Virus record (IMG/VR): IMGVR_UViG_3300028423_000363
Span: 1 to 62,770 of that record
Length of the DNA stretch: 62,770 bases
DNA from: a virus
Taxonomy: Duplodnaviria > Caudoviricetes
Strand: one strand, 5' to 3'
Shown here: in pieces, positions 1 through 62,745 of the stretch
Layout: each line of letters opens with the position of its first letter
Position numbering within the stretch: position 1 is the stretch's first letter
The notes under the pieces: model-generated
The model's database searches: none
What the model saw: only the letters and a program-made list of their open reading frames with translations
What the model was told of the DNA's origin: nothing
Program-made: the position numbers and the translations under genes

Positions 1-819
1 GTTCATAAATGTAAGCCTATACATACTGATATGTACTTATACATTGTTGATTTATGGAATAGACTAGGTCAAAAAAACACCTTTGGTTTACCGACAACTA
101 TAACTATGGAGGTTTTAGGTATAGGATCTTATAATACTTATAAAAAAACTTATCAAGATTTAATAGACTTCGGTTTTATAAAAGAAATAAAGAAATCAAG
201 AAATCAACATCAATCCAGAATAGTTGCCCTGTCAAAAAATGACAAACCACTTGACAAATCACTTGATAAAGCTAGTGCAAAAGCAGTTGATAAATCACTT
301 GACAAAGTAATTAACATAATAATAGAACAATTAAACAAGGAACAACTAACCATTGAACAATATGTTGAATTTATTAAGGATATAGATTTTAGTAAGAATG
401 AAAAGGAAATTAATATAGATAATCAAACTACTTCAAGTTTTCAGGATAAGAAAAAATCAAAAGATTTTTCTGACGAAGTGATAAGAAGTTATAATAGCTT
501 AGTTAAATACTTTCCTGAAGAGTTAAGACCTGAAAAAAATAAGTCTTGGTTAGAAACGATTGATAAGCTTAATAGAATAGATGGTCATAGTTTCGACCTC
601 ATAGAAGAAGTAGTTAGAAAGACTAGAAATGACAACTTTTGGAGACAAAACTTTTTATCATTACCTAAGCTTCGAAATAAAAATAAAGACGGTGTGCAGT
701 ATTTCTTAGTTTTTAAAACTAAATTTGCTCAGAAGAAAGATAATCACTGGAAAGATAATCCAAATTCAAAAAACATAACTATGGAAGAATTAATTGAACA
801 GGACACGCATGGACATTAA
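1..819 (+). CDS. Replication initiator / replisome organiser (lambda O-like, N-terminal wHTH); 5'-truncated by the window edge
   Basis: Frame is open from base 1 (VHKCKPIHTDMYLY...). N-terminus resembles Bacteroidota phage initiators (NRLGxK-FGLPT...SYNTY..T..DL.DFGFIK). Carries internal 12-bp repeats and lies directly upstream of the primase-helicase. Confidence 0.6.
   Translation, partial: VHKCKPIHTDMYLYIVDLWNRLGQKNTFGLPTTITMEVLGIGSYNTYKKTYQDLIDFGFIKEIKKSRNQHQSRIVALSKNDKPLDKSLDKASAKAVDKSLDKVINIIIEQLNKEQLTIEQYVEFIKDIDFSKNEKEINIDNQTTSSFQDKKKSKDFSDEVIRSYNSLVKYFPEELRPEKNKSWLETIDKLNRIDGHSFDLIEEVVRKTRNDNFWRQNFLSLPKLRNKNKDGVQYFLVFKTKFAQKKDNHWKDNPNSKNITMEELIEQDTHGH
241..312 (+). repeat. Six tandem imperfect 12-bp repeats (GAYAAAtCACTT), iteron-like candidate origin
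   Basis: GACAAACCACTT GACAAATCACTT GATAAAGCTAGT GCAAAAGCAGTT GATAAATCACTT GACAAAGTAATT, inside the initiator gene. Confidence 0.6.
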
Positions 820-2635
820 TGGTTTCGAAATTAAAGACTACAATATCTATGATATCCCTAGCAAATCTAAATATCATACCTGCCCTAAATGCAGTAAAGA
901 TAGAAAGAAAAGCAATGACAAGTGTGCTTATGTTAATTGGGATAGTGGCATACTAAGTTGTCAGCATTGTGGAGAATCAACTCAAATGCACACATTTAAA
1001 TCAACTAAACAAAGAGAAAAAAACTATGTAAAACCAAAGATTAACCTTAGTAATCAAGGTAAGTATTCAGATAACTTCATTAAATACTTTTTAGACAGAG
1101 GTATTTCACAAACCACAATGTCAACCTTCGGAATAAGACAAGACAAAGAGTATATGCCTCAAGAGTCTAAAGAGATGAATGTGATTTGTTTTGATTATTT
1201 ATTAGACGGAGAAGTTATTAACGTTAAGTATCGTGACGGAAAGAAGAACTTTAAGATGTATAAGGGTGCTGAGAAAATCCTTTACAACTTAGACAAAGCT
1301 ATAAATGAAGATTATATTGTTGTTGTGGAAGGCGAGTTTGATTGTATGAGTTTTCACGAAGCAGGGATTGAAAGTTGTGTGTCTGTACCTAATGGCTTTA
1401 ATCTTAAAGGTAATATTAACTTAGATTACTTAAATGATTATACTGAATACTTCGAAAACAAAGAAACTGTTTACATTGCTGTAGATAACGACGATGCAGG
1501 TAGAAAAGGTCAAAAAGAATTAGTAAGACGAATAGGTGCTGACAAATGTAAAATAGTTGATTTCGGAGATTGTAAAGATGCTAATGACTATTTGATTAAG
1601 CACGGAAAGAAAGCTCTTCGTGAATTGCTTAAAGAAGCTAAGCAAGTCCAAATGGAAGGAATATTCACAGCTAACGACGTCAGGTCTTCGATGTATGATA
1701 AATACAGAAATGGTCAAGAAAGAGGTACGACAACTTACGTGGATAGCTTAGACCCTGCATGGACTTGGAGAGGCGGAGAAGTTAACCTTTGGACTGGATA
1801 TCAAAACGAAGGCAAGTCTTTATTTTTAAATCAACTTTGTGCTGTTAGAGCTTATTGGGAAGATGCTAAGGTTGCTGTTTTTAGTCCTGAAAACTTTCCT
1901 GTTGACGACTTTAATAATGATATTATAGAAATGTTTATAGGTAAGTCTGTTGATATTTACTATAAGAATATTTATATGAATGAGAAAGAGTTTGAACAAG
2001 GCTTTAATTTTGTTAATGATAATTTCTTTTTAATATATCCTGAGAATAACTTTAGCTTAGACTCTATTTTTGAAAGAACTAGATTTCTTATTAAAACTAA
2101 AGGAATAAGAACATTAATCTTAGATCCTTACAATACTATTGAACATAAAATGAATAGAGGAGAGCGAGAAGATTTATATATTAGTAGGTTTATGGCTAGA
2201 CTTAAAAGATTTGCTGTAGAGTATAATATAAGCGTAAACCTTGTTGCTCACCAAAATACAGCCAGGATAGATGTTGACAATGATGGAAGATACAGGAAAC
2301 CTGATGTTAATAATATTAAAGGAGGTGGTACTTTCGCTGATAAAGCTGATAATGTTATTTCCATATGGAGACCTAATAGAAAATTAGATTACAAAGACAC
2401 TACTGTGTGGTTTATGTCTCAGAAAATTAAAAAGCAGAAGTTAGTTGGTATACCTCAAGAGATACAAGACATTACTTTTAGTGTAAAAGAAAACAGATAT
2501 TACTTTAATGGGTTTAGCCCATTTCAGAAAATAGATAAACACAGAAAAGGAGAAAGCGTTGAGCAGATGACTATAGAAAACAAAAAAGATTATGAACTTC
2601 CTAAGTTAGACCCTAACGATGATTGCCCTTTTTAA
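794..2635 (+). CDS. Primase-helicase (T7 gp4/Twinkle-like: Zn finger, TOPRIM, SF4 helicase)
   Basis: CPKC...CQHC zinc ribbon, VVEGEFD and VDNDDAG TOPRIM motifs, Walker A GYQNEGKS, LILDPYN, LVAHQ. True start is probably ATG 809. Confidence 0.92.
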   Translation: MNRTRMDINGFEIKDYNIYDIPSKSKYHTCPKCSKDRKKSNDKCAYVNWDSGILSCQHCGESTQMHTFKSTKQREKNYVKPKINLSNQGKYSDNFIKYFLDRGISQTTMSTFGIRQDKEYMPQESKEMNVICFDYLLDGEVINVKYRDGKKNFKMYKGAEKILYNLDKAINEDYIVVVEGEFDCMSFHEAGIESCVSVPNGFNLKGNINLDYLNDYTEYFENKETVYIAVDNDDAGRKGQKELVRRIGADKCKIVDFGDCKDANDYLIKHGKKALRELLKEAKQVQMEGIFTANDVRSSMYDKYRNGQERGTTTYVDSLDPAWTWRGGEVNLWTGYQNEGKSLFLNQLCAVRAYWEDAKVAVFSPENFPVDDFNNDIIEMFIGKSVDIYYKNIYMNEKEFEQGFNFVNDNFFLIYPENNFSLDSIFERTRFLIKTKGIRTLILDPYNTIEHKMNRGEREDLYISRFMARLKRFAVEYNISVNLVAHQNTARIDVDNDGRYRKPDVNNIKGGGTFADKADNVISIWRPNRKLDYKDTTVWFMSQKIKKQKLVGIPQEIQDITFSVKENRYYFNGFSPFQKIDKHRKGESVEQMTIENKKDYELPKLDPNDDCPF

Positions 2636-2710
2636 CATTTAAAGTGTTGTGTATATGAGTGTTATTAACTACTTTTGTCAAGTAAAATGATCAATAAACT
2701 TGACATTAAT

Positions 2711-2838
2711 AACGGATTACGGCTATGAAGCGTTGCCGAGTAAAACGCTTGAACTTTTAAATTATAAACAAAATGGATATACACCCGCAACACACAAATA
2801 TAGCACAGGGCAAAGGCAATGATTTTATAGCCGATGTT
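2711..2838. repeat. attC-like site (long loop containing the start of ORF 2773)
   Basis: AAC-GGATTA-CGGCTATGAAGCGTTGCC (2720-2737) ... GGCAATGATTTTATAGCCG (2815-2833)-AT-GTT. Confidence 0.7.
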
Positions 2839-3021
2839 ATAAACTGCCCTGATGAATTAGAGCCAGTTTTGGCACAAATAGAACATATAAACGATTTAGG
2901 TAAATCTAAATGGTACGAGGTAGTTTACTATGACGGGAACTGGCGTTCTTATAGTGGAAGCAATACTTTTGATGATGGTGAAAAGGTTTTAAAATGGAAA
3001 TACTGTAAGGGTTGTTTATAA
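2773..3021 (+). CDS. Cassette-encoded hypothetical protein spanning the crossover GTT in frame
   Basis: 82 aa. GTT 2836 is codon 22 (Val). The stop TAA lies within the closing TAAC core. Confidence 0.7.
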   Translation: MDIHPQHTNIAQGKGNDFIADVINCPDELEPVLAQIEHINDLGKSKWYEVVYYDGNWRSYSGSNTFDDGEKVLKWKYCKGCL

Positions 3022-3312
3022 CGTAAAAGTATAACAGTAGTAACAGAATATAAACTTTAAAATTAAAATAAAATGGCAAAACCAATTTTTATAGTAGAAT
3101 CACCAATTATGCAAACACAAGAAGAGTTTGTAAACACACAAAAAGTATTAGAAAATAAATTAAATGACTACCACGTTTTGATAGTACAAACCAATGTAGA
3201 TGATTTTAATTTTAAAGTTTTTTACGATAAAGACTTTACAGAAATTGAACTTAATGATTTAAGAAAATACATTAAAGAAAAATTAAAGTAGTTATTACTG
3301 TTATGCATTGTT
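3020..3312. repeat. attC-like site with a complete ORF in its loop
   Basis: AAC-GTAAAA-GTATAACAGTAGTAAC (3029-3044) ... GTTATTACTGTTATGC (3291-3306)-ATT-GTT. Arms are identical to those at 55275-55562. Confidence 0.75.
3073..3291 (+). CDS. Hypothetical protein inside the attC-like loop
   Basis: 72 aa with an A-rich leader. The stop TAG overlaps the first base of the right arm. Confidence 0.75.
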   Translation: MAKPIFIVESPIMQTQEEFVNTQKVLENKLNDYHVLIVQTNVDDFNFKVFYDKDFTEIELNDLRKYIKEKLK

Positions 3313-3359
3313 ACTTGCAGTGCGCCTATTAAGTGTAATTGTTTGGCGCATTGCTATGT

Positions 3360-3425
3360 AACATTTCGGCGATATGATTTGCGCCTTTATGGATTGAGTG
3401 ATTAGCGTAAATTATATTGCGTGTT
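3360..3425. repeat. attC-like site (66 bp)
   Basis: AAC-ATTTCG-GCGATATGATTTGCGC-20 nt loop-GCGTAAATTATATTGC-GT-GTT. Confidence 0.75.
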
Positions 3426-3460
3426 ATATGCCGATAGGGAACTGTAAAAATTAAGAAGAT

Positions 3461-3703
3461 ATGAAAACATTTAAAGTAAATACTGTGCAAGATATGATTG
3501 ACTGCACGAATGAAAACAACTTAGATAATTTTTTAGTAGATTTAAAAAAGATTATTGAAGCAGCTCATTATTTTAGAGAGTTAACTGATAATATGGCTGA
3601 GAAACAAAACATTTCTAAAAAATTAACGGAACTGAAAAGCAAAGGATTTGAATGGATTGACGATAGCAAACACGAAATAACTATCGAATTAAGCAGTAAG
3701 TAA
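3461..3703 (+). CDS. Cassette-encoded hypothetical protein
   Basis: 80 aa, between GTTATATGC (3423) and GCATATAAC (3720). Confidence 0.75.
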   Translation: MKTFKVNTVQDMIDCTNENNLDNFLVDLKKIIEAAHYFRELTDNMAEKQNISKKLTELKSKGFEWIDDSKHEITIELSSK

Positions 3704-3855
3704 TTTTTATTGCATATAACACGTGATAACATCATATATTGAACTAAAACATTATTAATCATGTAGTTACATAATATAAGTAGTTCGGAAGTGAACTTTT
3801 TATTTTTTAATTAAGTGATGAAGAGTTTGTTTTCGAACTACACTAAAATAAGATT

Positions 3856-4071
3856 ATGACGACATTTCAAGATTTACTAAAATTAAAAACAAAAAAAGGA
3901 GTTCCTTATAAAATAACTTCTATAGAGAAAATCAAAGACACAAAAAAATGGCATAAAAAAAAGAAAGATTATACTTATTCTTGGGAAATAATAACTAAAT
4001 TTGACGGAAATATAAGGTTTAAACTAACCTTAAACAACAACGACATAATAACAAATCAAGAGAAACTATGA
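3856..4071 (+). CDS. Hypothetical protein
   Basis: 71-aa ORF, translationally coupled to the next gene (ATGA overlap). Confidence 0.65.
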   Translation: MTTFQDLLKLKTKKGVPYKITSIEKIKDTKKWHKKKKDYTYSWEIITKFDGNIRFKLTLNNNDIITNQEKL

Positions 4072-4394
4072 GTGATTCAGTAACTAAGTTTTATGATTCA
4101 TTAACATCCGAAACTATTAGTGGCGATTTAAAATTAGCACATGACATGAAAAACAGTATAAAGCCTAAACATTACGAATTAATGGGAGTAGAAGTTAAGG
4201 ATATTTTAGAAGAGGTTTTAGATAAAGTCGAAAAAAGCAATTTCAATATGTCTTTAAATGAGGCAGGATGGTATCAACAAGCTATGCAATACTTTCTAAG
4301 ATTCTACGCTAAGAATGGTTTAGAAGACTTAGAAAAAGGTATAGAAGCTATGAATATTTTAGTTAAAAGTATAAAAACAAAAAACAATGAGTAA
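4068..4394 (+). CDS. DUF3310-like (SaV-like) phage protein
   Basis: IKPKHY...EVKD...YFLR...KNGLEDLEKG signature. Confidence 0.7.
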   Translation: MSDSVTKFYDSLTSETISGDLKLAHDMKNSIKPKHYELMGVEVKDILEEVLDKVEKSNFNMSLNEAGWYQQAMQYFLRFYAKNGLEDLEKGIEAMNILVKSIKTKNNE

Positions 4395-4644
4395 GAAAAA
4401 AGATTTACCAAACCACAAGATTGCAGTATTAACAAGTTTGTTAGTAGATGAATTAGATAGTCTTAAACCAACATCTGATAAAGGACAAAAAGTATTGAGT
4501 CTTGGTCGTGAATTGCAGGAAGAGTTAATGCCTGTATTAGATAATTTATACACTCTCGAAGGAGTAAGCAAAACAACTTATCTCTCAGACCTTGCAAATA
4601 AGGTGGACACAGTAATCAGAAAAAACTATAGAAAAATAAATTAA
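4387..4644 (+). CDS. Hypothetical protein
   Basis: 85 aa, overlaps both neighbouring genes in the operon. Confidence 0.7.
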   Translation: MSKKKDLPNHKIAVLTSLLVDELDSLKPTSDKGQKVLSLGRELQEELMPVLDNLYTLEGVSKTTYLSDLANKVDTVIRKNYRKIN

Positions 4645-5276
4645 TGAAAGTAGAATTATTAGACGTATTCGGAAATGATCTAATGATAGCTAATGCAGCT
4701 AGAGTTAGTTACGGAAAATCAAAAAATTTCTTTGACGAAAAAGACGAGAAGCTTTTAAGGTTTTTAGTTAAACACAATCATATATCTCCGTTTTTTCACC
4801 CTAAGCTACAGTTTAGAATAACTTGCCCTATATATGTCGAAAGACAATTAAAGAAAACAACTATAGGTGTTGACGAAAATAGTATAAGCGGTAGATATGT
4901 AGACTTTAGTGATACTTACACTAGAATAGAAAATTGGAGGAAGCAATCAACATCAAGTAAACAGGGAAGTTTCGGTAGTGTCGAAAATCAACATAAATGC
5001 TCTCTAATAGAAGATAATATTATAGAGGTATGCAAGAAGGCTTACGAAGATTTAATTAACGAGGGCGTCTCTAAAGAGCAAGCAAGAAGTGTTTTGCCAT
5101 TAAGTTTAAACACAACAATGATATGGACAGGAAGTCTTCAGGCTTTTTTAAGGCTTTGTCAATTAAGATTAAAAGAAGATGCTCAAATAGAAACAGGAGA
5201 TGTTGTTCGTGAAATGTTGAACGAAGTCAAGAAGTCTGGTAGTTTTGATAAAACATTATTGATATATGATTTGTAA
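4644..5276 (+). CDS. thyX: FAD-dependent thymidylate synthase ThyX
   Basis: ANAARVSY, HISPF, RQL...NSISGRY, KEQARSVLP, LRLKEDAQIE motifs. Confidence 0.92.
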   Translation: MKVELLDVFGNDLMIANAARVSYGKSKNFFDEKDEKLLRFLVKHNHISPFFHPKLQFRITCPIYVERQLKKTTIGVDENSISGRYVDFSDTYTRIENWRKQSTSSKQGSFGSVENQHKCSLIEDNIIEVCKKAYEDLINEGVSKEQARSVLPLSLNTTMIWTGSLQAFLRLCQLRLKEDAQIETGDVVREMLNEVKKSGSFDKTLLIYDL

Positions 5277-29956: not shown

Positions 29957-30107
29957 AATCTACGCCTTTAGTTGTTAGAAAATCAATTAGTTCTTGCTCT
30001 GTTTCAAATTCCTCGAAGTAAGGCTGACCACTGTTAACTTGTTGTCCTTCTTCTATTTTTCCATAATGGAAAACATCCTTGTCATTGTGTGCTACATAAT
30101 ATTTCAT
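29937..30107 (-). CDS. Small hypothetical protein (56 aa, not in ORF track)
   Basis: Read manually: MKYYVAHNDKDVFHYGKIEEGQQVNSGQPYFEEFETEQELIDFLTTKGVDYETTIE; fills the operon gap. Confidence 0.55.
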   Translation of the reverse strand: MKYYVAHNDKDVFHYGKIEEGQQVNSGQPYFEEFETEQELIDFLTTKGVDYETTIE

Positions 30108-30117
30108 ATCTATTTTT

Positions 30118-31116
30118 TTATATTTCTAATCCGCCATCTGTGATTGTCCAACCTCTAGCAATTAAAGCGTTTCTTGCTGTTTGCCCTGCTGCGTTGTATT
30201 GTGAGTTACCACCATCAAAGGCTACGTTGTTGTTAGGGTTGTTTGCTTCTAAGTCTATCAATAATTGTGAGTAGCGTTCTGTGTTTATGGTGTTTTCTAA
30301 GAACATAGAACCGCCGTTAGTTAATGAAGGTAACTCCATCCCTGTTGGTAATGAAGTAAGGGAGTTATCCATAAACATAAAACGACCATCAGTCAACAAT
30401 GGCAAATCCATACCACTTGGTAACGATGTTAAATTATTGCCTAAAAACATAGAAATACCTTCAGTCAACAACGGTAACTCCATCCCTGTTGGTAATGAAG
30501 TTAAATTGTTTCGCACAAACATTTGTACACCTTCATTCAACAATGGCAACTCCATTCCTGCTGGTAATGATGTAATAGCATTATCTCTAAACATTCTACC
30601 AGCAACAATTAACAAAGGCATTTTCATATCGCTTGGTAATGAAGTAAGGGAGTTATCCATAAACATAAAACTTCCAATCTCTACAACTTCAAACCAAGCA
30701 CCACCACCTGCTATTTCTGATAAATTTGAGCATCCGAAAAACGCATTACTTTGATTAGGCTCATTAACTCCATACAATCCCCATTGAAGGACTTTAAGCA
30801 GTTTATTTTTATCTCCACCATCACTAAACGTTAACTTATCAAGCCCTGCTTCTTTTGGAATAACTCTTAACTCATATATACCTGCGCTAGGTAAGGTAAT
30901 TGTTTGCTCGTTAACTAAGTCGCTAAAACTTGCAACTAAGCTGTTATTTTGATAGGCTTCTACATCGTACTCGCCAACCGCACCTGTAAATTGGAATTGG
31001 TCTGCATTGCTTACCCCTGCGATAGATGTATCTACCTCAATAATGAAGTTAGGGTCGAATTTAGAATAAGACCGACCTGTTATATCAATACTGTTAGATA
31101 TCGACAATCCTACCAT
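30118..31116 (-). CDS. Leucine-rich-repeat (BspA-like) virion fibre, possibly a head fibre
   Basis: Five 24-aa repeats NxLTSLPxGMELPLLxxGxxMFxx; C-terminus ARNALIARGWTITDGG. Confidence 0.65.
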   Translation of the reverse strand: MVGLSISNSIDITGRSYSKFDPNFIIEVDTSIAGVSNADQFQFTGAVGEYDVEAYQNNSLVASFSDLVNEQTITLPSAGIYELRVIPKEAGLDKLTFSDGGDKNKLLKVLQWGLYGVNEPNQSNAFFGCSNLSEIAGGGAWFEVVEIGSFMFMDNSLTSLPSDMKMPLLIVAGRMFRDNAITSLPAGMELPLLNEGVQMFVRNNLTSLPTGMELPLLTEGISMFLGNNLTSLPSGMDLPLLTDGRFMFMDNSLTSLPTGMELPSLTNGGSMFLENTINTERYSQLLIDLEANNPNNNVAFDGGNSQYNAAGQTARNALIARGWTITDGGLEI

Positions 31117-40396: not shown

Positions 40397-40494
40397 ACTG
40401 TTTTTTTATTATTATTTACAAAGATACGAAGAATAAAAATTAGTTTAATTCATTGAAAAATGTATATTTGCTATATAATCTTAAATTTATAATA

Positions 40495-42120
40495 ATGAAA
40501 CACATTAAAGAAATTAACTTTGGAGATTATTCTCGAAGTGAATTAATGAAAGGTGTAGACATCGTTGCAGACGCTGTTTCCTCAACTATGGGAGCACAAG
40601 GTCGTAATGTAATCTATGAAACACAATTTGGTAAGCCGAAGTCAACTAAAGATGGTGTGACTGTTGCTAATCAGGTATTCTTAGAAAAACCACTTCAAAG
40701 TCTAGGTGCGGAACTAGTTAAAGAAGCTGCCGAAAAAACTGTAAATGAATGTGGTGATAGCACGACAAACACAACAGTATTAGCTCGTGAGATAATGAAA
40801 TTATCGAACAACGAAGTTGATAAAGGAGCGCATCCTATCGAACTCAAAAGAGGCATCGAGTCTGCGACTCAAGAAATCCTAAGTATAATTAACAAAAAAC
40901 GTGTTAAGTTAAAAAAGAAGGATTACTTCAATGTCGCTAACATTTCAGCTAACAATGACAGAGAGTTAGGTAAGGTTATTTCAGACGCTTTCAAAAAAGC
41001 AGGGAAGAACGGAGTAGTGCTTCACGATAAGTCAGCTACTAACGAGACACATATCAAGATGTCTGAAGGGATGCTTATTGAGAGAGGATTTTCTAATAAG
41101 ACTATGATTACTGATACAGGTGCTGCAACAATGGAACTCGATAAGCCTTATCTATTCATTTGTGATAAACCGATAGATAATATCAATGAGATAATGTTCT
41201 TGTATGAGCATCTTCACGAATTAAAGAAGCAAGGTAAAAACGCGAGTGTTTTAATTATCGGAGAACTTAGTCAAAAGGTCGAAGAAATTATAAGTGTTAA
41301 TCGTTATAAGCATAATGCTAATCTGTTCTATGTTAAAGCTCCTGCTCACGCAAGTAAGCGTACAGACTTTTTAGAGGATATTGCTATTGCTACAGGAGCT
41401 AAGATGATGCGTAAAGATTCGACAGACAGCTACGCTTCGTTAGGTGTCGGAATATTAGGTCAGTGTAAAAGTGTGAAGAGCACAGAAAGAGAAACTGTTC
41501 TTGACATATTCGAAGAAAGTTTTAGAGACGATATAGATGCTCAAATAAAGACCTTAGAGCAACTTAAATCTAAAGCGAGTAGTACAAGGCATAAATTACA
41601 GAAAAGCTTCTTAGAAGAGAGAATAGCTAAGTTATCGTGTTCTGTGGCAACTATTATGGTAGGTGCTAATAGTGAGGTTGAGTTAGACGAAAAGATAGAT
41701 AGAGTTGACGATGCTGTGAATGCGTTGAGGTCTGCTGTCGAAGAAGGTATTTTGTTAGGTGGTGGCTTAGCTTTATTTAACGCTTCCTTTGAATTAAGTA
41801 GAGATTCTAAGAACACAGAAGACTTTAATAAGGGTTACTGCATTATTCAGGAATCTATCAGAAAGCCTTTTATACAAATATTAGATAATGCAGGGGTTAA
41901 AGATATCGAAGAGGTTGAATCTTCCGTGTTTACTTCTGAGTCTGAGTATTTAGGATATAATGTTTCTACTTTTGAATATTGTGATTTTTACAAAGAAGGA
42001 ATTATAGACCCTCACAAAGCTATTAGATGTGCTTTACAAAACGCTTCATCTGTAGCTTCGACATTTTTATTAACTAACACAACTATATCAATAAAGAGAG
42101 ATGAAAGCAATACTAAATAA
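40495..42120 (+). CDS. groEL: Phage chaperonin GroEL-like
   Basis: STMGAQGRNV, TKDGVTVA, GDSTT, ISANND, RVDDA, EEGILLGGG, GIIDP. Start taken as ATG 40495 because the promoter box lies at 40463. Confidence 0.93.
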   Translation: MKHIKEINFGDYSRSELMKGVDIVADAVSSTMGAQGRNVIYETQFGKPKSTKDGVTVANQVFLEKPLQSLGAELVKEAAEKTVNECGDSTTNTTVLAREIMKLSNNEVDKGAHPIELKRGIESATQEILSIINKKRVKLKKKDYFNVANISANNDRELGKVISDAFKKAGKNGVVLHDKSATNETHIKMSEGMLIERGFSNKTMITDTGAATMELDKPYLFICDKPIDNINEIMFLYEHLHELKKQGKNASVLIIGELSQKVEEIISVNRYKHNANLFYVKAPAHASKRTDFLEDIAIATGAKMMRKDSTDSYASLGVGILGQCKSVKSTERETVLDIFEESFRDDIDAQIKTLEQLKSKASSTRHKLQKSFLEERIAKLSCSVATIMVGANSEVELDEKIDRVDDAVNALRSAVEEGILLGGGLALFNASFELSRDSKNTEDFNKGYCIIQESIRKPFIQILDNAGVKDIEEVESSVFTSESEYLGYNVSTFEYCDFYKEGIIDPHKAIRCALQNASSVASTFLLTNTTISIKRDESNTK

Positions 42121-53793: not shown

Positions 53794-54135
53794 GTGGCAA
53801 TAAAAAATAAAAAAATGACAGAAGCAGATAAAATATTAAATAAGCATTTAACTGATAATGAAGCTAAATATATAGCTGATAAAAGATTTCTTTACGACAG
53901 TTTGATAAACGCAATAAATGAAGCATTAGCTACATCTCGTGTTAGCAGTAGCTTATTAGAAATAACACTTGAAGAATGGGAACACACTTGTGACGATGGC
54001 TGCTGTTATTCTTACGGTGAAGATATATATCTAAATGGTGAGAAATTAGACGAGCAAAATGCTGAAGATAGTAGGAATGCATTAACAGCAGTACTTACAA
54101 GGTTAGGTTATGACGTTGAAATAAATTACCGCTAA
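53794..54135 (+). CDS. Hypothetical protein reading in frame into the first cassette of array 2
   Basis: GTT 53941 is an in-frame Val (ATSRVSSS); stop lies in GCTAAC. Likely start ATG 53815. Confidence 0.7.
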   Translation: MAIKNKKMTEADKILNKHLTDNEAKYIADKRFLYDSLINAINEALATSRVSSSLLEITLEEWEHTCDDGCCYSYGEDIYLNGEKLDEQNAEDSRNALTAVLTRLGYDVEINYR

Positions 54136-54200
54136 CTGGTGGCGTATAAGATTTGCGCCTTTTCAGCCGAGTAAGTTCAGCGTAAATTTTATGCGCTGTT
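54134..54200. repeat. attC-like site (67 bp)
   Basis: AAC-TGGTG-GCGTATAAGATTTGCGC-21 nt-GCGTAAATTTTATGCGC-T-GTT. Confidence 0.78.
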
Positions 54201-54249
54201 ATGCACTGGCACGGATTAATAAATAATAACTTAAATTCAACTTAATAAA

Positions 54250-54543: not shown

Positions 54544-54554
54544 TGCTTGTGCAT

Positions 54555-54620
54555 AACATTCCAGTGCTATGAAAAGTGCCTTTAGGGAATAAGTGATTAG
54601 CATTTTTTATAGCACGTGTT
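54555..54620. repeat. attC-like site (66 bp)
   Basis: AAC-ATTCCA-GTGCTATGAAAAGTGC-20 nt-GCATTTTTTATAGCAC-GT-GTT. Confidence 0.78.
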
Positions 54621-54667
54621 AGCTGACGAAGTGAACAGTAAAATATTAATGGATTAAAAAAAGAATT

Positions 54668-55258: not shown

Positions 55259-55274
55259 TATTTTATTGCAGGCT

Positions 55275-55562
55275 AACGTAAAAGTATAACAGTAGTAACG
55301 GAAATATTAATAACTAAATTTTTTAAATATGAAAGCAAAACTAATATATAATGGTGAAGAAACTGCAGAAACACAAGAAGTTGATTTACCACAAATACCA
55401 AGGGTAGGCGACGGTTTTTGTGTTTTAATAGACAATGTAGAAAAGCGAGTATTTGCTTCTTGTGTGGTGGAAAGCATAGACTGGTGGATTGAAAATGGTA
55501 AACTGCGAAATGTAGAAATTTATTTAAAAGACGAAGAATAGTTATTACTGTTATGCATTGTT
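55275..55562. repeat. attC-like site with a complete ORF in its loop
   Basis: Arms identical to 3020-3312. Confidence 0.75.
55329..55541 (+). CDS. Hypothetical protein inside the attC-like loop
   Basis: 70 aa (PQIPRVGD motif); stop TAG overlaps the right arm. Confidence 0.75.
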   Translation: MKAKLIYNGEETAETQEVDLPQIPRVGDGFCVLIDNVEKRVFASCVVESIDWWIENGKLRNVEIYLKDEE

Positions 55563-55670
55563 ATATATCTGGTGGTGGCTAGTAAGACCTTAGCGGATGA
55601 TGAATGCACTTGATGCGATTCTGGTTTGGCGAAAATATGGGTTTATTAACCTGTGCCACCACTTGTATAT

Positions 55671-55734
55671 AACTGGTGGCGTATAAAATAAGCCAGCGCA
55701 ACACTGGTTAATTCGGCTTGTTTTATGCGCTGTT
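55671..55734. repeat. attC-like site (64 bp)
   Basis: AAC-TGGTG-GCGTATAAAATAAGCC-20 nt-GGCTTGTTTTATGCGC-T-GTT. Confidence 0.78.
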
Positions 55735-55796
55735 GTAAAGCGTTTTTCAATTCAAATTTTTTAAATTCAAATATTAATCAATTAAATAAAATAAAA

Positions 55797-58116: not shown

Positions 58117-58740
58117 ATGGCAAAAGAAAAAATGAATCTTAGACAAAAATTATCAGCTATACAAAATGAGCTGAAAGCACCTAAAAATCAAAGAAACAAT
58201 TTCGGGAAGTACAACTATCGTTCAGCAGAAGATATATTAGAGGCTGCTAAACCTTTGTGCTACAAATACAATACGTGCTTAGTAGTTAGTGATGAGTTAG
58301 TTAATATAGGCGAAAGGTATTATATAAACGCAGAAGCTGTTCTTTTCGATAATGAATCTGATAACACTATTTCTGCCAATGGATATGCCAGAGAGGAAGA
58401 AAATAAGAAGGGTATGGACGGTAGCCAAATAACAGGTGCTTCGTCATCGTACTCACGAAAATACGCTCTTAATGGTCTGTTTAATATTGACGACACTAAA
58501 GATAGTGATGCGACAAATGACGGTAGTAAAGAAGTAAAGAAGCCTTCGAGTAAACCAAAACAAAAGACAGCTACAGAAGATGATAAAAAACAGAAGTTAA
58601 TCAAGGCTTTCTCAGACAATAAAGAAAAGACCATATCGGCTATGAAGTCTAAAGGTCAGAAGTTGTCAAGAGCTCAAGCTAACGTCTTAGTTTCGGAAAA
58701 TATTGTAACTAAAGAAGAGATTGCTGATGTGGTCAAGTAA
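58117..58740 (+). CDS. ERF-family ssDNA annealing protein
   Basis: LKAPKNQ.N.FGKYNYRSAEDIL...QITGASSSYSRKYALNGLF.IDDTKD.D. Confidence 0.85.
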   Translation: MAKEKMNLRQKLSAIQNELKAPKNQRNNFGKYNYRSAEDILEAAKPLCYKYNTCLVVSDELVNIGERYYINAEAVLFDNESDNTISANGYAREEENKKGMDGSQITGASSSYSRKYALNGLFNIDDTKDSDATNDGSKEVKKPSSKPKQKTATEDDKKQKLIKAFSDNKEKTISAMKSKGQKLSRAQANVLVSENIVTKEEIADVVK

Positions 58741-61989: not shown

Positions 61990-62745
61990 ATGTATGTATA
62001 CCTTATGAAATGTTCTATTTATTATAAAATAGGATATTCAAAAAATCCAAAAAACAGACTAAAAACTGTAAAAACACACAATCCTTTAGATGTTAAACTT
62101 CTCGCGACGTTAAAAACTAAAAAAAGTAGGAGTTTAGAAAAAGAACTTCACAATTTGTTTTTGCCGAAAAACTCAAGGAGAGAATGGTTTGAGTTGCATT
62201 ATCAAGATTTATTAAAGTTGAAGATTGATTATGGATTTAATTTTCTTGAACCAATAGAATACATTACCGACGACTACAAAGAAGACGAATATACTTTAGG
62301 TAAGATAAAGGAGATAAGAATTGATAACGCTAAATTAGACGCTCTTAAAACATATTTCGAGAATTTATTCGAAACGGAAATAGTCGATAACATACCTATG
62401 AAAAAATGTTCTTTGAACTTTGATTCAGAGTTAATAATAAAAGCTATTGATAATCTTTTTGAACAAGGTAAGGATGCTGATACCTGTTATAAACTTATAT
62501 ACACGGTTTGCTGCAATCTTCAGGAATCAAAAGAAAATCCAGGCAGGTATTTTGCGAAAGTAGTTAGAGCTTTGCTTTACAAGCAATATGGATATGAGTT
62601 AATGGATAAGGATTTTGACTACATATCTAATAATTTCAACAAAGACTCAAATGTTAGTAAAGCTATAAGGGAGATCAACTCAAGAAAGTTTTATCTAAAT
62701 ATTACTGAGTTTCTTATTTTTATTAATGATAAATTTATTATATAA
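61990..62745 (+). CDS. T5orf172/GIY-YIG-like domain protein
   Basis: YVYLM....YKIGYSKNP..RL......NP...LEKELH..F......EWFEL. Confidence 0.8.
   Translation: MYVYLMKCSIYYKIGYSKNPKNRLKTVKTHNPLDVKLLATLKTKKSRSLEKELHNLFLPKNSRREWFELHYQDLLKLKIDYGFNFLEPIEYITDDYKEDEYTLGKIKEIRIDNAKLDALKTYFENLFETEIVDNIPMKKCSLNFDSELIIKAIDNLFEQGKDADTCYKLIYTVCCNLQESKENPGRYFAKVVRALLYKQYGYELMDKDFDYISNNFNKDSNVSKAIREINSRKFYLNITEFLIFINDKFII

Follow-up and report, generated by a model that had tools for sequence, protein, structure and literature searches.

Genes enclosed by identical hairpin arms in a phage genome

The window analysed here is the whole of the IMG/VR virus record IMGVR_UViG_3300028423_000363 (62,770 bp), at two places of which a small open reading frame (ORF) lies in the loop of a long-range hairpin, the arms of the hairpin being identical at both places. 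Site 1 extends from 3019 to 3313 (295 nt) and site 2 from 55274 to 55563 (290 nt). The 26-nt left arm and the 25-nt right arm occur exactly at both loci (Table 1) and nowhere else in the genome, even if 3 mismatches are allowed, and the expected number of chance matches is 0 for either arm (100 shuffles). On single-strand folding of either locus, GUAUAACAGUAGUAAC pairs with GUUAUUACUGUUAUGC over 16 bp, of which 2 are G·U, and the stem so formed encloses the whole ORF. The inner stem halves are the last 16 nt of the left arm and the 16 nt that follow the TA of the right arm. Both inner stems are without a bulged base and have 2 G·T wobbles, and the outer TAAC/GTTA pair can extend the stem by 4 bp. 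The duplex energy of the arm stem is -20.7 kcal/mol on the + strand vs -13.1 on the - strand. It may be noted that the TAA of the left arm at locus 1 is also the stop codon of the upstream ORF 2773-3021.

The enclosed genes, ORF72 and ORF70, both terminate on the TAG that opens the right arm and give no BLASTP alignment with each other at E<=100. Exact search, folding and BLASTP thus confirm what the original prediction had read from the letters, namely identical arms, a 16-bp stem, unrelated ORFs of 72 and 70 aa and stops that overlap the right arm. Neither ORF has a tblastn match in GenBank phages, a PHROG or a Pfam family. ORF72 looks like a real gene on comparison of its copies in the window and in L128 (loci outside the window are given by such numbers), which differ by 6 synonymous and 7 conservative non-synonymous changes (pN/pS 0.25).

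Table 1. Positions of the arm-bracketed sites, hairpins and genes in the window
Feature	Coordinates	Strand	Remarks
Left arm, locus 1	3019-3044	+	Outer TAAC, 6-nt spacer, 16-nt inner stem half
Leader, locus 1	3045-3072	+	A/T-rich, left arm to ATG; resembles leaders of L128 and L110
Cargo ORF72, 72 aa	3073-3291	+	Homologue in L128, 90% identical and between the same arms
Right arm, locus 1	3289-3313	+	TAG stop, 16-nt inner stem half, ATT spacer, outer GTTA
Left arm, locus 2	55274-55299	+	15 nt 3′ of methyltransferase gene
Leader, locus 2	55300-55328	+	
Cargo ORF70, 70 aa	55329-55541	+	No relative found
Right arm, locus 2	55539-55563	+	
Short family member E3	3357-3432	+	
Short family member E4	54131-54206	+	Directly 3′ of ORF 53794-54135
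Short family member E5	54552-54627	+	Between ORF97 and methyltransferase
Short family member E7	55668-55741	+	
Long-loop family member	2708-2844	+	Found by model R2; 3′ arm inside ORF82
Hairpin H1, GTTAC...GTAAC	3310-3362	+	First GTTA common to right arm of locus 1
Hairpin H1′, GTTATATAT...ATATATAAC	55560-55672	+	Begins at GTTA of right arm of locus 2
Primase-helicase	794-2635	+	From sequence reading, without family scan
Thymidylate-synthase-like ORF	4644-5276	+	From sequence reading, without scan
DNA methyltransferase, 196 aa	54668-55258	+	
Putative ERF-type annealase	58117-58740	+	Label from the original prediction, without scan; many relatives
T5orf172/MUG113 domain protein	61990-62745	+	At record end

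Arm-bracketed sites in other contigs

Collections of viral, metagenome and genome contigs were scanned with sub-strings of the arms and identical copies were removed. With a left-arm 19-mer we found 1 locus in the viral contigs (L005, left arm only) and 4 in the genome contigs, 1 of them with both arms, and a left-arm 20-mer gave 9 loci in the metagenome contigs (4 with leader/ATG context, 2 with both arms). A degenerate right-arm 17-mer matched 19 loci in the viral contigs, 7 of which have the left inner stem 175-260 nt upstream, and a right-arm 20-mer with GC had 0 matches in the same contigs. The left inner 16-mer matched 26 viral loci, 21 of them new, and added one left-arm-only site (L156); the other 20 of the 21 are chance matches in coding DNA, without leader context. 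Also set aside were 3 of the 4 genome-contig loci, the metagenome loci L111, L113, L115, L117 and L118 (no leader or ATG context) and L119, the sole match of an E4/E7 17-mer, which was dismissed as chance as it lies in coding, G+C-rich DNA.

This census, with the ORFs listed between the arms, gave 10 distinct paired-arm sites, of which 9 bear an ORF and 1 is nearly empty (Table 2). The nine cargo ORFs make up 8 families with no mutual BLASTP match at 1e-4, and none belongs to a Pfam family. The ATG lies 25-29 nt 3′ of the arm and the stop is the TAG of the arm in 8 of the 9 cases; the exception is L126, with its ATG at +8 and a TAA stop of its own. The orientation of leader and ORF relative to the arms is identical in all 10 sites. 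The suggestion that the site is itself a cargo slot is thus upheld by 8 unrelated ORF families and one near-empty site, and the arms are not confined to the two ORFs of the window but are found with other cargo elsewhere. Because the arm element is also present in a Lutibacter genome, the hosts are probably marine Flavobacteriia.

Table 2. The ten distinct sites with paired arms
Site	Cargo	Loop (nt)
Window locus 1	ORF72	246
Window locus 2	ORF70	241
L128	ORF72 homologue	246
L116	63-aa ORF	219
L133	60-aa ORF	209
L135	60-aa ORF, different from that of L133	209
L131	Cys-rich 47-aa ORF	168
L139 (Lutibacter aestuarii record)	64-aa ORF	222
L126 (same as L130; L137 near-identical)	49-aa membrane ORF	161
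L110	None (leader, ATG and few codons only)	39

The 100% identity of both arm pairs within the window would also be expected from a duplication or gene conversion private to this genome. But the arms are present in at least 8 other distinct contigs (the Lutibacter genome included) with other cargo, and the phages that carry them share almost no other similarity with the window, by which this explanation is refuted and practically no weight is left to it.

On comparing the 10 sites column by column, 15 of 16 columns are invariant in the inner stem half on each side, against 1 of 10 and 3 of 7 in the spacer and outer parts. Three inner-stem variants were seen, each of which keeps the pairing by a wobble on the + strand. 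In L110 and L128 both sides of the outer pair are altered, from TAAC/GTTA to CAAC/GTTG, with a U·G intermediate in L116 and L133.

Arms as limits of homology

To place the arms relative to the ends of similarity, site pairs were compared. Locus 1 and L128 have the arms, the leader and ORF72 in common while their neighbouring genes are unrelated: the mean column identity is 85% over 475 columns (about 130 of them unrelated flank), only about 16 of about 290 columns differ within the unit, and similarity runs from the inner stem to GTTR. L005 and L126 have the membrane ORF in common with unrelated flanks; L005 has lost the right arm, and there the similarity stops within the 3′ end of its ORF. 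Between locus 2 and L116, blastn gave two blocks only, the first of 85 nt at 85% (window 55274-55358; left arm, leader and first 30 nt of the ORF) and the second of 47 nt (last ~23 nt of the ORF and the right arm). Ungapped extension found similarity outside the arms in 0 of 45 site pairs; it is too strict for leader similarity, and we rely on it for the outward flanks alone. Beyond the sites, the carrier phages have next to nothing in common with the window (1-14 kb compared for each). Taken together, the comparisons support the arms as the limits of homology between otherwise unrelated phages, in line with the expectation in the original prediction that the long sites act as breakpoints and that genes between identical arms could be swapped, the descriptive core of which holds in both the census and the relocation. 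The end points differ by pair (inner stem, leader or ORF ends), which fits recombination within a short shared sequence and not a single fixed cut.

Contigs from four marine/saltern runs were also placed on 2000-4500; contigs only were used, which are a small share of the data, and uncovered parts are not interpreted. Breaks in the contigs of relatives lie at 3016/3019 and 3312, a 344-nt contig covers exactly 3019-3362, and another joins 3053 to 3286, which is a skip with no strand change. A second cluster of breaks at 2709-2711, formed by contigs of four runs, coincides with the 5′ TAAC of the 2708-2844 hairpin, and the stretch 2711-2779 has a very high summed depth. L112 has a 76% identical copy of E5, the alignment block of 123 nt including the leader of the methyltransferase as well. 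In the region 940-1760 of this contig a 220-aa methyltransferase, non-homologous to the 196-aa enzyme that has the corresponding place in the window, lies between a family hairpin and the left arm. Judged by this comparison, the methyltransferase gene was replaced between conserved non-coding elements.

Inverted repeats of 16 bp around a segment of 160-250 bp, found with their cargo in unrelated contexts, might also be the terminal inverted repeats of a miniature transposon or those of an invertible segment, moved by a dedicated enzyme. However, no target-site duplication is present in the site flanks (gttgttta/cttgcagt and ttgcaggc/tatatctg), the copies are not alike internally, the 10 distinct sites all have one orientation, the contigs contain no strand-change joint and the arm pair fits the hairpin family described below, with loops of 7-20 nt in other members. 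Also, tyrosine recombinases (PF00589), Y1 transposases (PF01797) and serine recombinases/resolvases (PF00239) gave no match in the phage genome, which is complete (three families searched, DDE transposases not among them). We regard such a transposon or inverton as very improbable. Readings of the arms as dif/Xer sites or as IS200/IS605 ends were dropped, as neither fits in sequence and PF01797, in the latter case, is absent.

The hairpin family

The window contains further hairpins of similar build (E3, E4, E5, E7 and 2708-2844 in Table 1). The architecture of the family is YAAC, 4-6 unpaired nt, a 16-bp stem, the loop, the other stem half, 0-3 nt and GTTR, and the asymmetry of the unpaired spacer (4-6 nt on the 5′ side vs 0-3 nt on the 3′ side) is found in all members and in the arms. 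In three short members of the window, taken by themselves, 10 of 22 pairs have compensatory changes. A model built from the short hairpins of the window (R1) matched two sites in the metagenome contig L112, sites in Polaribacter phage P12002L and 2 of the 151 Flavobacteriaceae genomes searched. In 100 loci surrounding relatives of the primase-helicase and ERF genes this narrow model detected no member, nor did it detect one in the Lutibacter genome. An alignment of 18 phage and bacterial members with short or medium loops has 97.4% of its cells paired and changes on both sides at 14 of 22 pairs, though it was made to the model and therefore leans towards structure. In it AAC and GTT are kept in 17-18 of the 18 members and G·U wobbles at two fixed stem positions in 16. 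For all five family measures 0 of 500 shuffles reached the observed value, and slid controls brought the pairing down to 27-50%. With RNA and DNA parameters alike, it is the same strand that folds better in each of the 18 members, and sense-strand energies exceed the antisense ones by a factor of two to three.

A second model (R2) was built from the 18 members, with no arm sequence included, and it detects the near-empty arm site of L110 at full length (25.3 bits, E 1.9e-4). On the evidence of this match, the arm pair is a divergent member of an attC-like hairpin family and not an isolated inverted repeat. Loop length forms a continuum, from ~7 to ~150 nt in the other members and 39-246 nt in the arm-type sites. 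In contrast to the near-invariant arms, the stems of short members covary freely. R2 also detects members in Cellulophaga phage phi17:1 and gives five matches with E < 1e-3 in P12002L, some of them near methyltransferase genes.

In the 2708-2844 member ORF82 begins within the loop, which holds its leader, its ATG (2773) and its initial codons. A hairpin orthologous to it is found at the start of gp8 in phi17:1. Further members with long loops are present in L110 (157-285, - strand) and L131 (1629-1832), where the downstream ORF starts within the loop and reads through the 3′ arm. Another hairpin of the window, at 3780-3840 in the gap before ORF 3856-4071, has 25 bp with 8 G·U (-26.3 kcal/mol on the + strand vs -9.2 on the - strand) and is recognised by neither R1 nor R2. 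A hairpin of another kind stands 3′ of the right arm in L133 (after 7660), L135 and L116 and is also found in P12002L (29974-30077 and 30849-30964); it starts at the GTTG of the arm, ends in CAAC, has the conserved loop GTTTTAATG and occurs in up to three tandem copies, the last with a U-tract (L133).

Relation to integron recombination sites

In the Flavobacteriaceae genome G024, 9 near-identical family members alternate with ORFs. The array is spread over two contigs (L172 1-7300 and L171; C2 and C46), one of which ends inside a hairpin, and its ORFs comprise a ParE/RelE-like toxin-antitoxin pair (from sequence reading), a hydrolase and lipoprotein-like proteins. It adjoins a 408-aa tyrosine recombinase, encoded on the strand of the ORFs and opposite to the hairpins, for which the best NCBIfam match is the integron integrase TIGR02249. 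The better-folding hairpin strand is antisense to the neighbouring ORFs in G024 and in the bacterial genome G148, like the attC bottom strand. Clusters of attC sites without integrase (CALINs) are described in virulent phages, including P12002L with methyltransferase cassettes, and one attC site of P12002L was recombined by IntI1, as given in the consulted portion of Qi et al. 2023 (PMC9892861).

Recombination cassette or RNA-level bracket

We consider it probable that the sites carry a portable gene cassette in the loop of an attC-like hairpin, which is exchanged by recombination at the near-invariant arms. Each 295-nt or 290-nt site would be one attC-like hairpin, in which YAAC pairs with GTTR on the outside and an asymmetric unpaired spacer separates this pair from the 16-bp inner stem, and its terminal loop would have been taken over by a small expression unit (~28-nt A/T-rich leader, ATG, ORF of 47-72 codons and a stop supplied by the arm). 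Since only the stem and the AAC/GTT ends are constrained, the content of the loop would be free; the primary function of the hairpin would tolerate any content, and the loop may be a safe place for small early genes. The near-invariant arms and leader, common to unrelated phages of marine Flavobacteriia, would provide the short homology for exchange of cargo between co-infecting genomes, with the arms as limits of the relocating unit. We infer exchange by short-homology recombination, for which the phage ERF annealase is a candidate; alternatively or in addition, an integron-type integrase of the host may act on the folded + strand at the AAC/GTT ends. Of all this, the structure, the family membership, the diversity of cargo, the relocation into unrelated flanks and the want of a phage recombinase of the searched classes were observed. 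A wider formulation, which we offer tentatively, is that of an undescribed integron-related cassette system in phages of marine Flavobacteriia, where the recombination hairpin is the vehicle and the small gene sits in its loop with built-in leader and stop. The whole hairpin or the loop would then move between phages, and possibly between phage and host integron, via single-stranded intermediates, with a host integron-type integrase and/or the phage annealase.

Several points weigh against exchange of cassettes by recombination. No exchange event was observed directly, the sites compared being all from metagenomic or genomic contigs, and the phage itself has no match to the three recombinase families searched. 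The recombinase of G024 scores 210 bits vs the TIGR02249 cut-off of 265, and against solved structures XerC-like proteins, XerA and IntI4 are matched about equally. Extrahelical bases of the inner stem set the strand choice of attC (Bouvier et al. 2009, PMC2727003, consulted portion); unlike attC, the present hairpins have no extrahelical bases but two conserved G·T wobbles instead. A left arm without right arm lies before a 54-aa membrane ORF (L005, same as L114) and a 137-aa DUF7448 ORF (L156), and in L112 the left arm precedes an ORF of at least 94 aa, where the contig ends before a right arm could show. The left arm may thus have a function of its own. As to the near-invariance, the arm type is either recognised by sequence or has recently spread, and, with no compensatory changes seen in the inner stem, it speaks for some factor that recognises the sequence specifically. 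Finally, the better-folding strand is the sense strand in the window (5 of 5 + strand members and both arm sites), in L112 (3 of 3), in P12002L (4 of 5 strong matches) and in phi17:1. With this reversal the phage ORFs are not classical cassettes, and it leaves room for a role at the RNA level. The recombination hairpin of the original prediction therefore stands in so far as the arms belong to an attC-like family, but the simple integron orientation is reversed in phages.

The strand preference brings in another explanation, in which the hairpins of early transcripts are RNase III-type processing sites, attenuators or insulators. A long-range stem (16 + 4 bp in the predicted transcript) would excise or insulate the message of the small ORF, and exchange of cargo would be a by-product, as in the PeSLs of T4-type phages, where shuffling by way of regulatory cassettes has a precedent (Arbiol et al. 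2010, PMC2839356; Comeau et al. 2014, PMC4122927; consulted portions). The strong folding of the mRNA-sense strand in phages fits this at least as well as recombination; G·U pairs are stable in RNA, and the sense energies are higher by the factor given above. Also in its favour, the stop codon lies directly against the 3′ arm in 8 of the 9 sites that bear an ORF, so that a ribosome on terminating would open the stem, and further hairpins follow the sites, the one in L133 with a U-tract. On the other hand, the wobble positions and the strand asymmetry are kept in the bacterial array, where they are antisense to all neighbouring ORFs. The wobbles being thus kept on a non-mRNA strand, G·U pairs are no proof of an RNA function, and our initial reading of them as such was dropped. 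Moreover, no U-tract is present 3′ of the hairpins of the window, and Rfam gave no match in the window at gathering score. No promoter was recognised in arms or leaders, and no TTG/TAnnTTTG motif of a host-type promoter in the left arm (both judged by eye only, with no consensus scan). An RNA-level bracket would also leave the invariant AAC/GTT ends and the recombinase neighbour unexplained. We hold it rather unlikely as the full account and rank recombination at arms and leader above it.

Small early phage genes of unknown function turn over fast, and how they move is poorly understood. In these sites they would have a sequence-defined vehicle, made of a near-invariant 16-bp stem, a leader and a shared stop, which is found with at least 8 unrelated genes in unrelated phages and is tied to a hairpin family that forms an integron-like array in a bacterial genome. 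With a defined substrate, it becomes testable whether the attC-like sites of lytic phages are used and whether a loop can carry cargo without loss of function. The arm sequences could also serve as a probe for the pool of mobile phage genes in metagenomes.

Genome setting

The genes of the record lie in two blocks. The - strand block carries the genes for structure and packaging (portal, large terminase and virion proteins), and the + strand block, which wraps across the record ends, the small early and replication genes, among them a flap endonuclease and the genes of Table 1. The T5orf172/MUG113 domain belongs to what we take to be a GIY-YIG-related nuclease superfamily, so that the protein at the record end is possibly a homing-type nuclease in the same variable region as the arm sites. 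A phage-encoded GroEL-type chaperonin (40453-42120, PHROG 5725, E 2.7e-128) is on the + strand amid the otherwise - strand late region. The - strand ORF 30118-31116 contains tandem repeats at 30297-30656 with a period of 72 nt, reported as 4 overlapping 144-nt copies spaced by 72 nt over a span of 360 nt and 65-73% alike. On searching the flanking regions, Cellulophaga phage phi17:1 alone gave a DNA match in GenBank, which was weak.

Comparison with known systems

No description of a gene inside an attC loop or of the present element was found in the portions of the literature consulted. The hairpins resemble attC in being imperfect palindromes with an outer AAC...GTT, an unpaired spacer, a covarying inner stem and one better-folding strand. 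By eye, boxes such as GGCTAAC, ATGTAAC, GTTATAT and GTTAGCT match the 7-nt box consensus of attC (RYYYAAC / GTTRRRY) only in part. Arrays of alternating ORFs and hairpins, association with methyltransferase genes and presence in P12002L are further features in common with attC and CALINs, and the bacterial array, like an integron, adjoins an integron-integrase-like gene. Unlike attC, they occur in a phage without integrase and fold better on the sense strand in phages, and their terminal loop can hold a whole ORF with its own leader.

According to the consulted portions of the two papers cited above, PeSLs are direct repeats in which a sigma-70 promoter is joined to a local stem-loop. They share with the present sites that they are conserved short intergenic elements of variable early regions, lie beside genes of unknown function, mark the junctions of insertions or replacements between phages and form stem-loops with G-T pairs. 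The sites differ from PeSLs as thus described in having no promoter recognised by eye and in placing the stem halves on either side of a gene, and neither the phages nor their hosts are related to the T4 group.

ORF-bearing DNA within an attC site is found with the IS1111-attC insertion sequences. Group IIC-attC introns also put such DNA inside attC and split the site in two (PMC3001079, consulted portion). Both encode their own mobility enzyme and are constant in sequence, while the sites here have unrelated small ORFs and no mobility gene, exactly between the conserved leader and the stop of the arm. The internal ORF also differs here from copy to copy. In this the sites depart from the mycobacteriophage elements MPME1/2, which are very small and have inverted repeats and one small ORF that is the same in all copies. 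In bacterial rRNA operons, long-range stems cut by RNase III form in the primary transcript around the 16S and 23S rRNA, which are RNA genes, and such stems are not portable from genome to genome. The arms are like these processing stems in that complementary sequences lie on either side of a whole gene, but what they bracket is a protein-coding ORF, and one that is portable between genomes.

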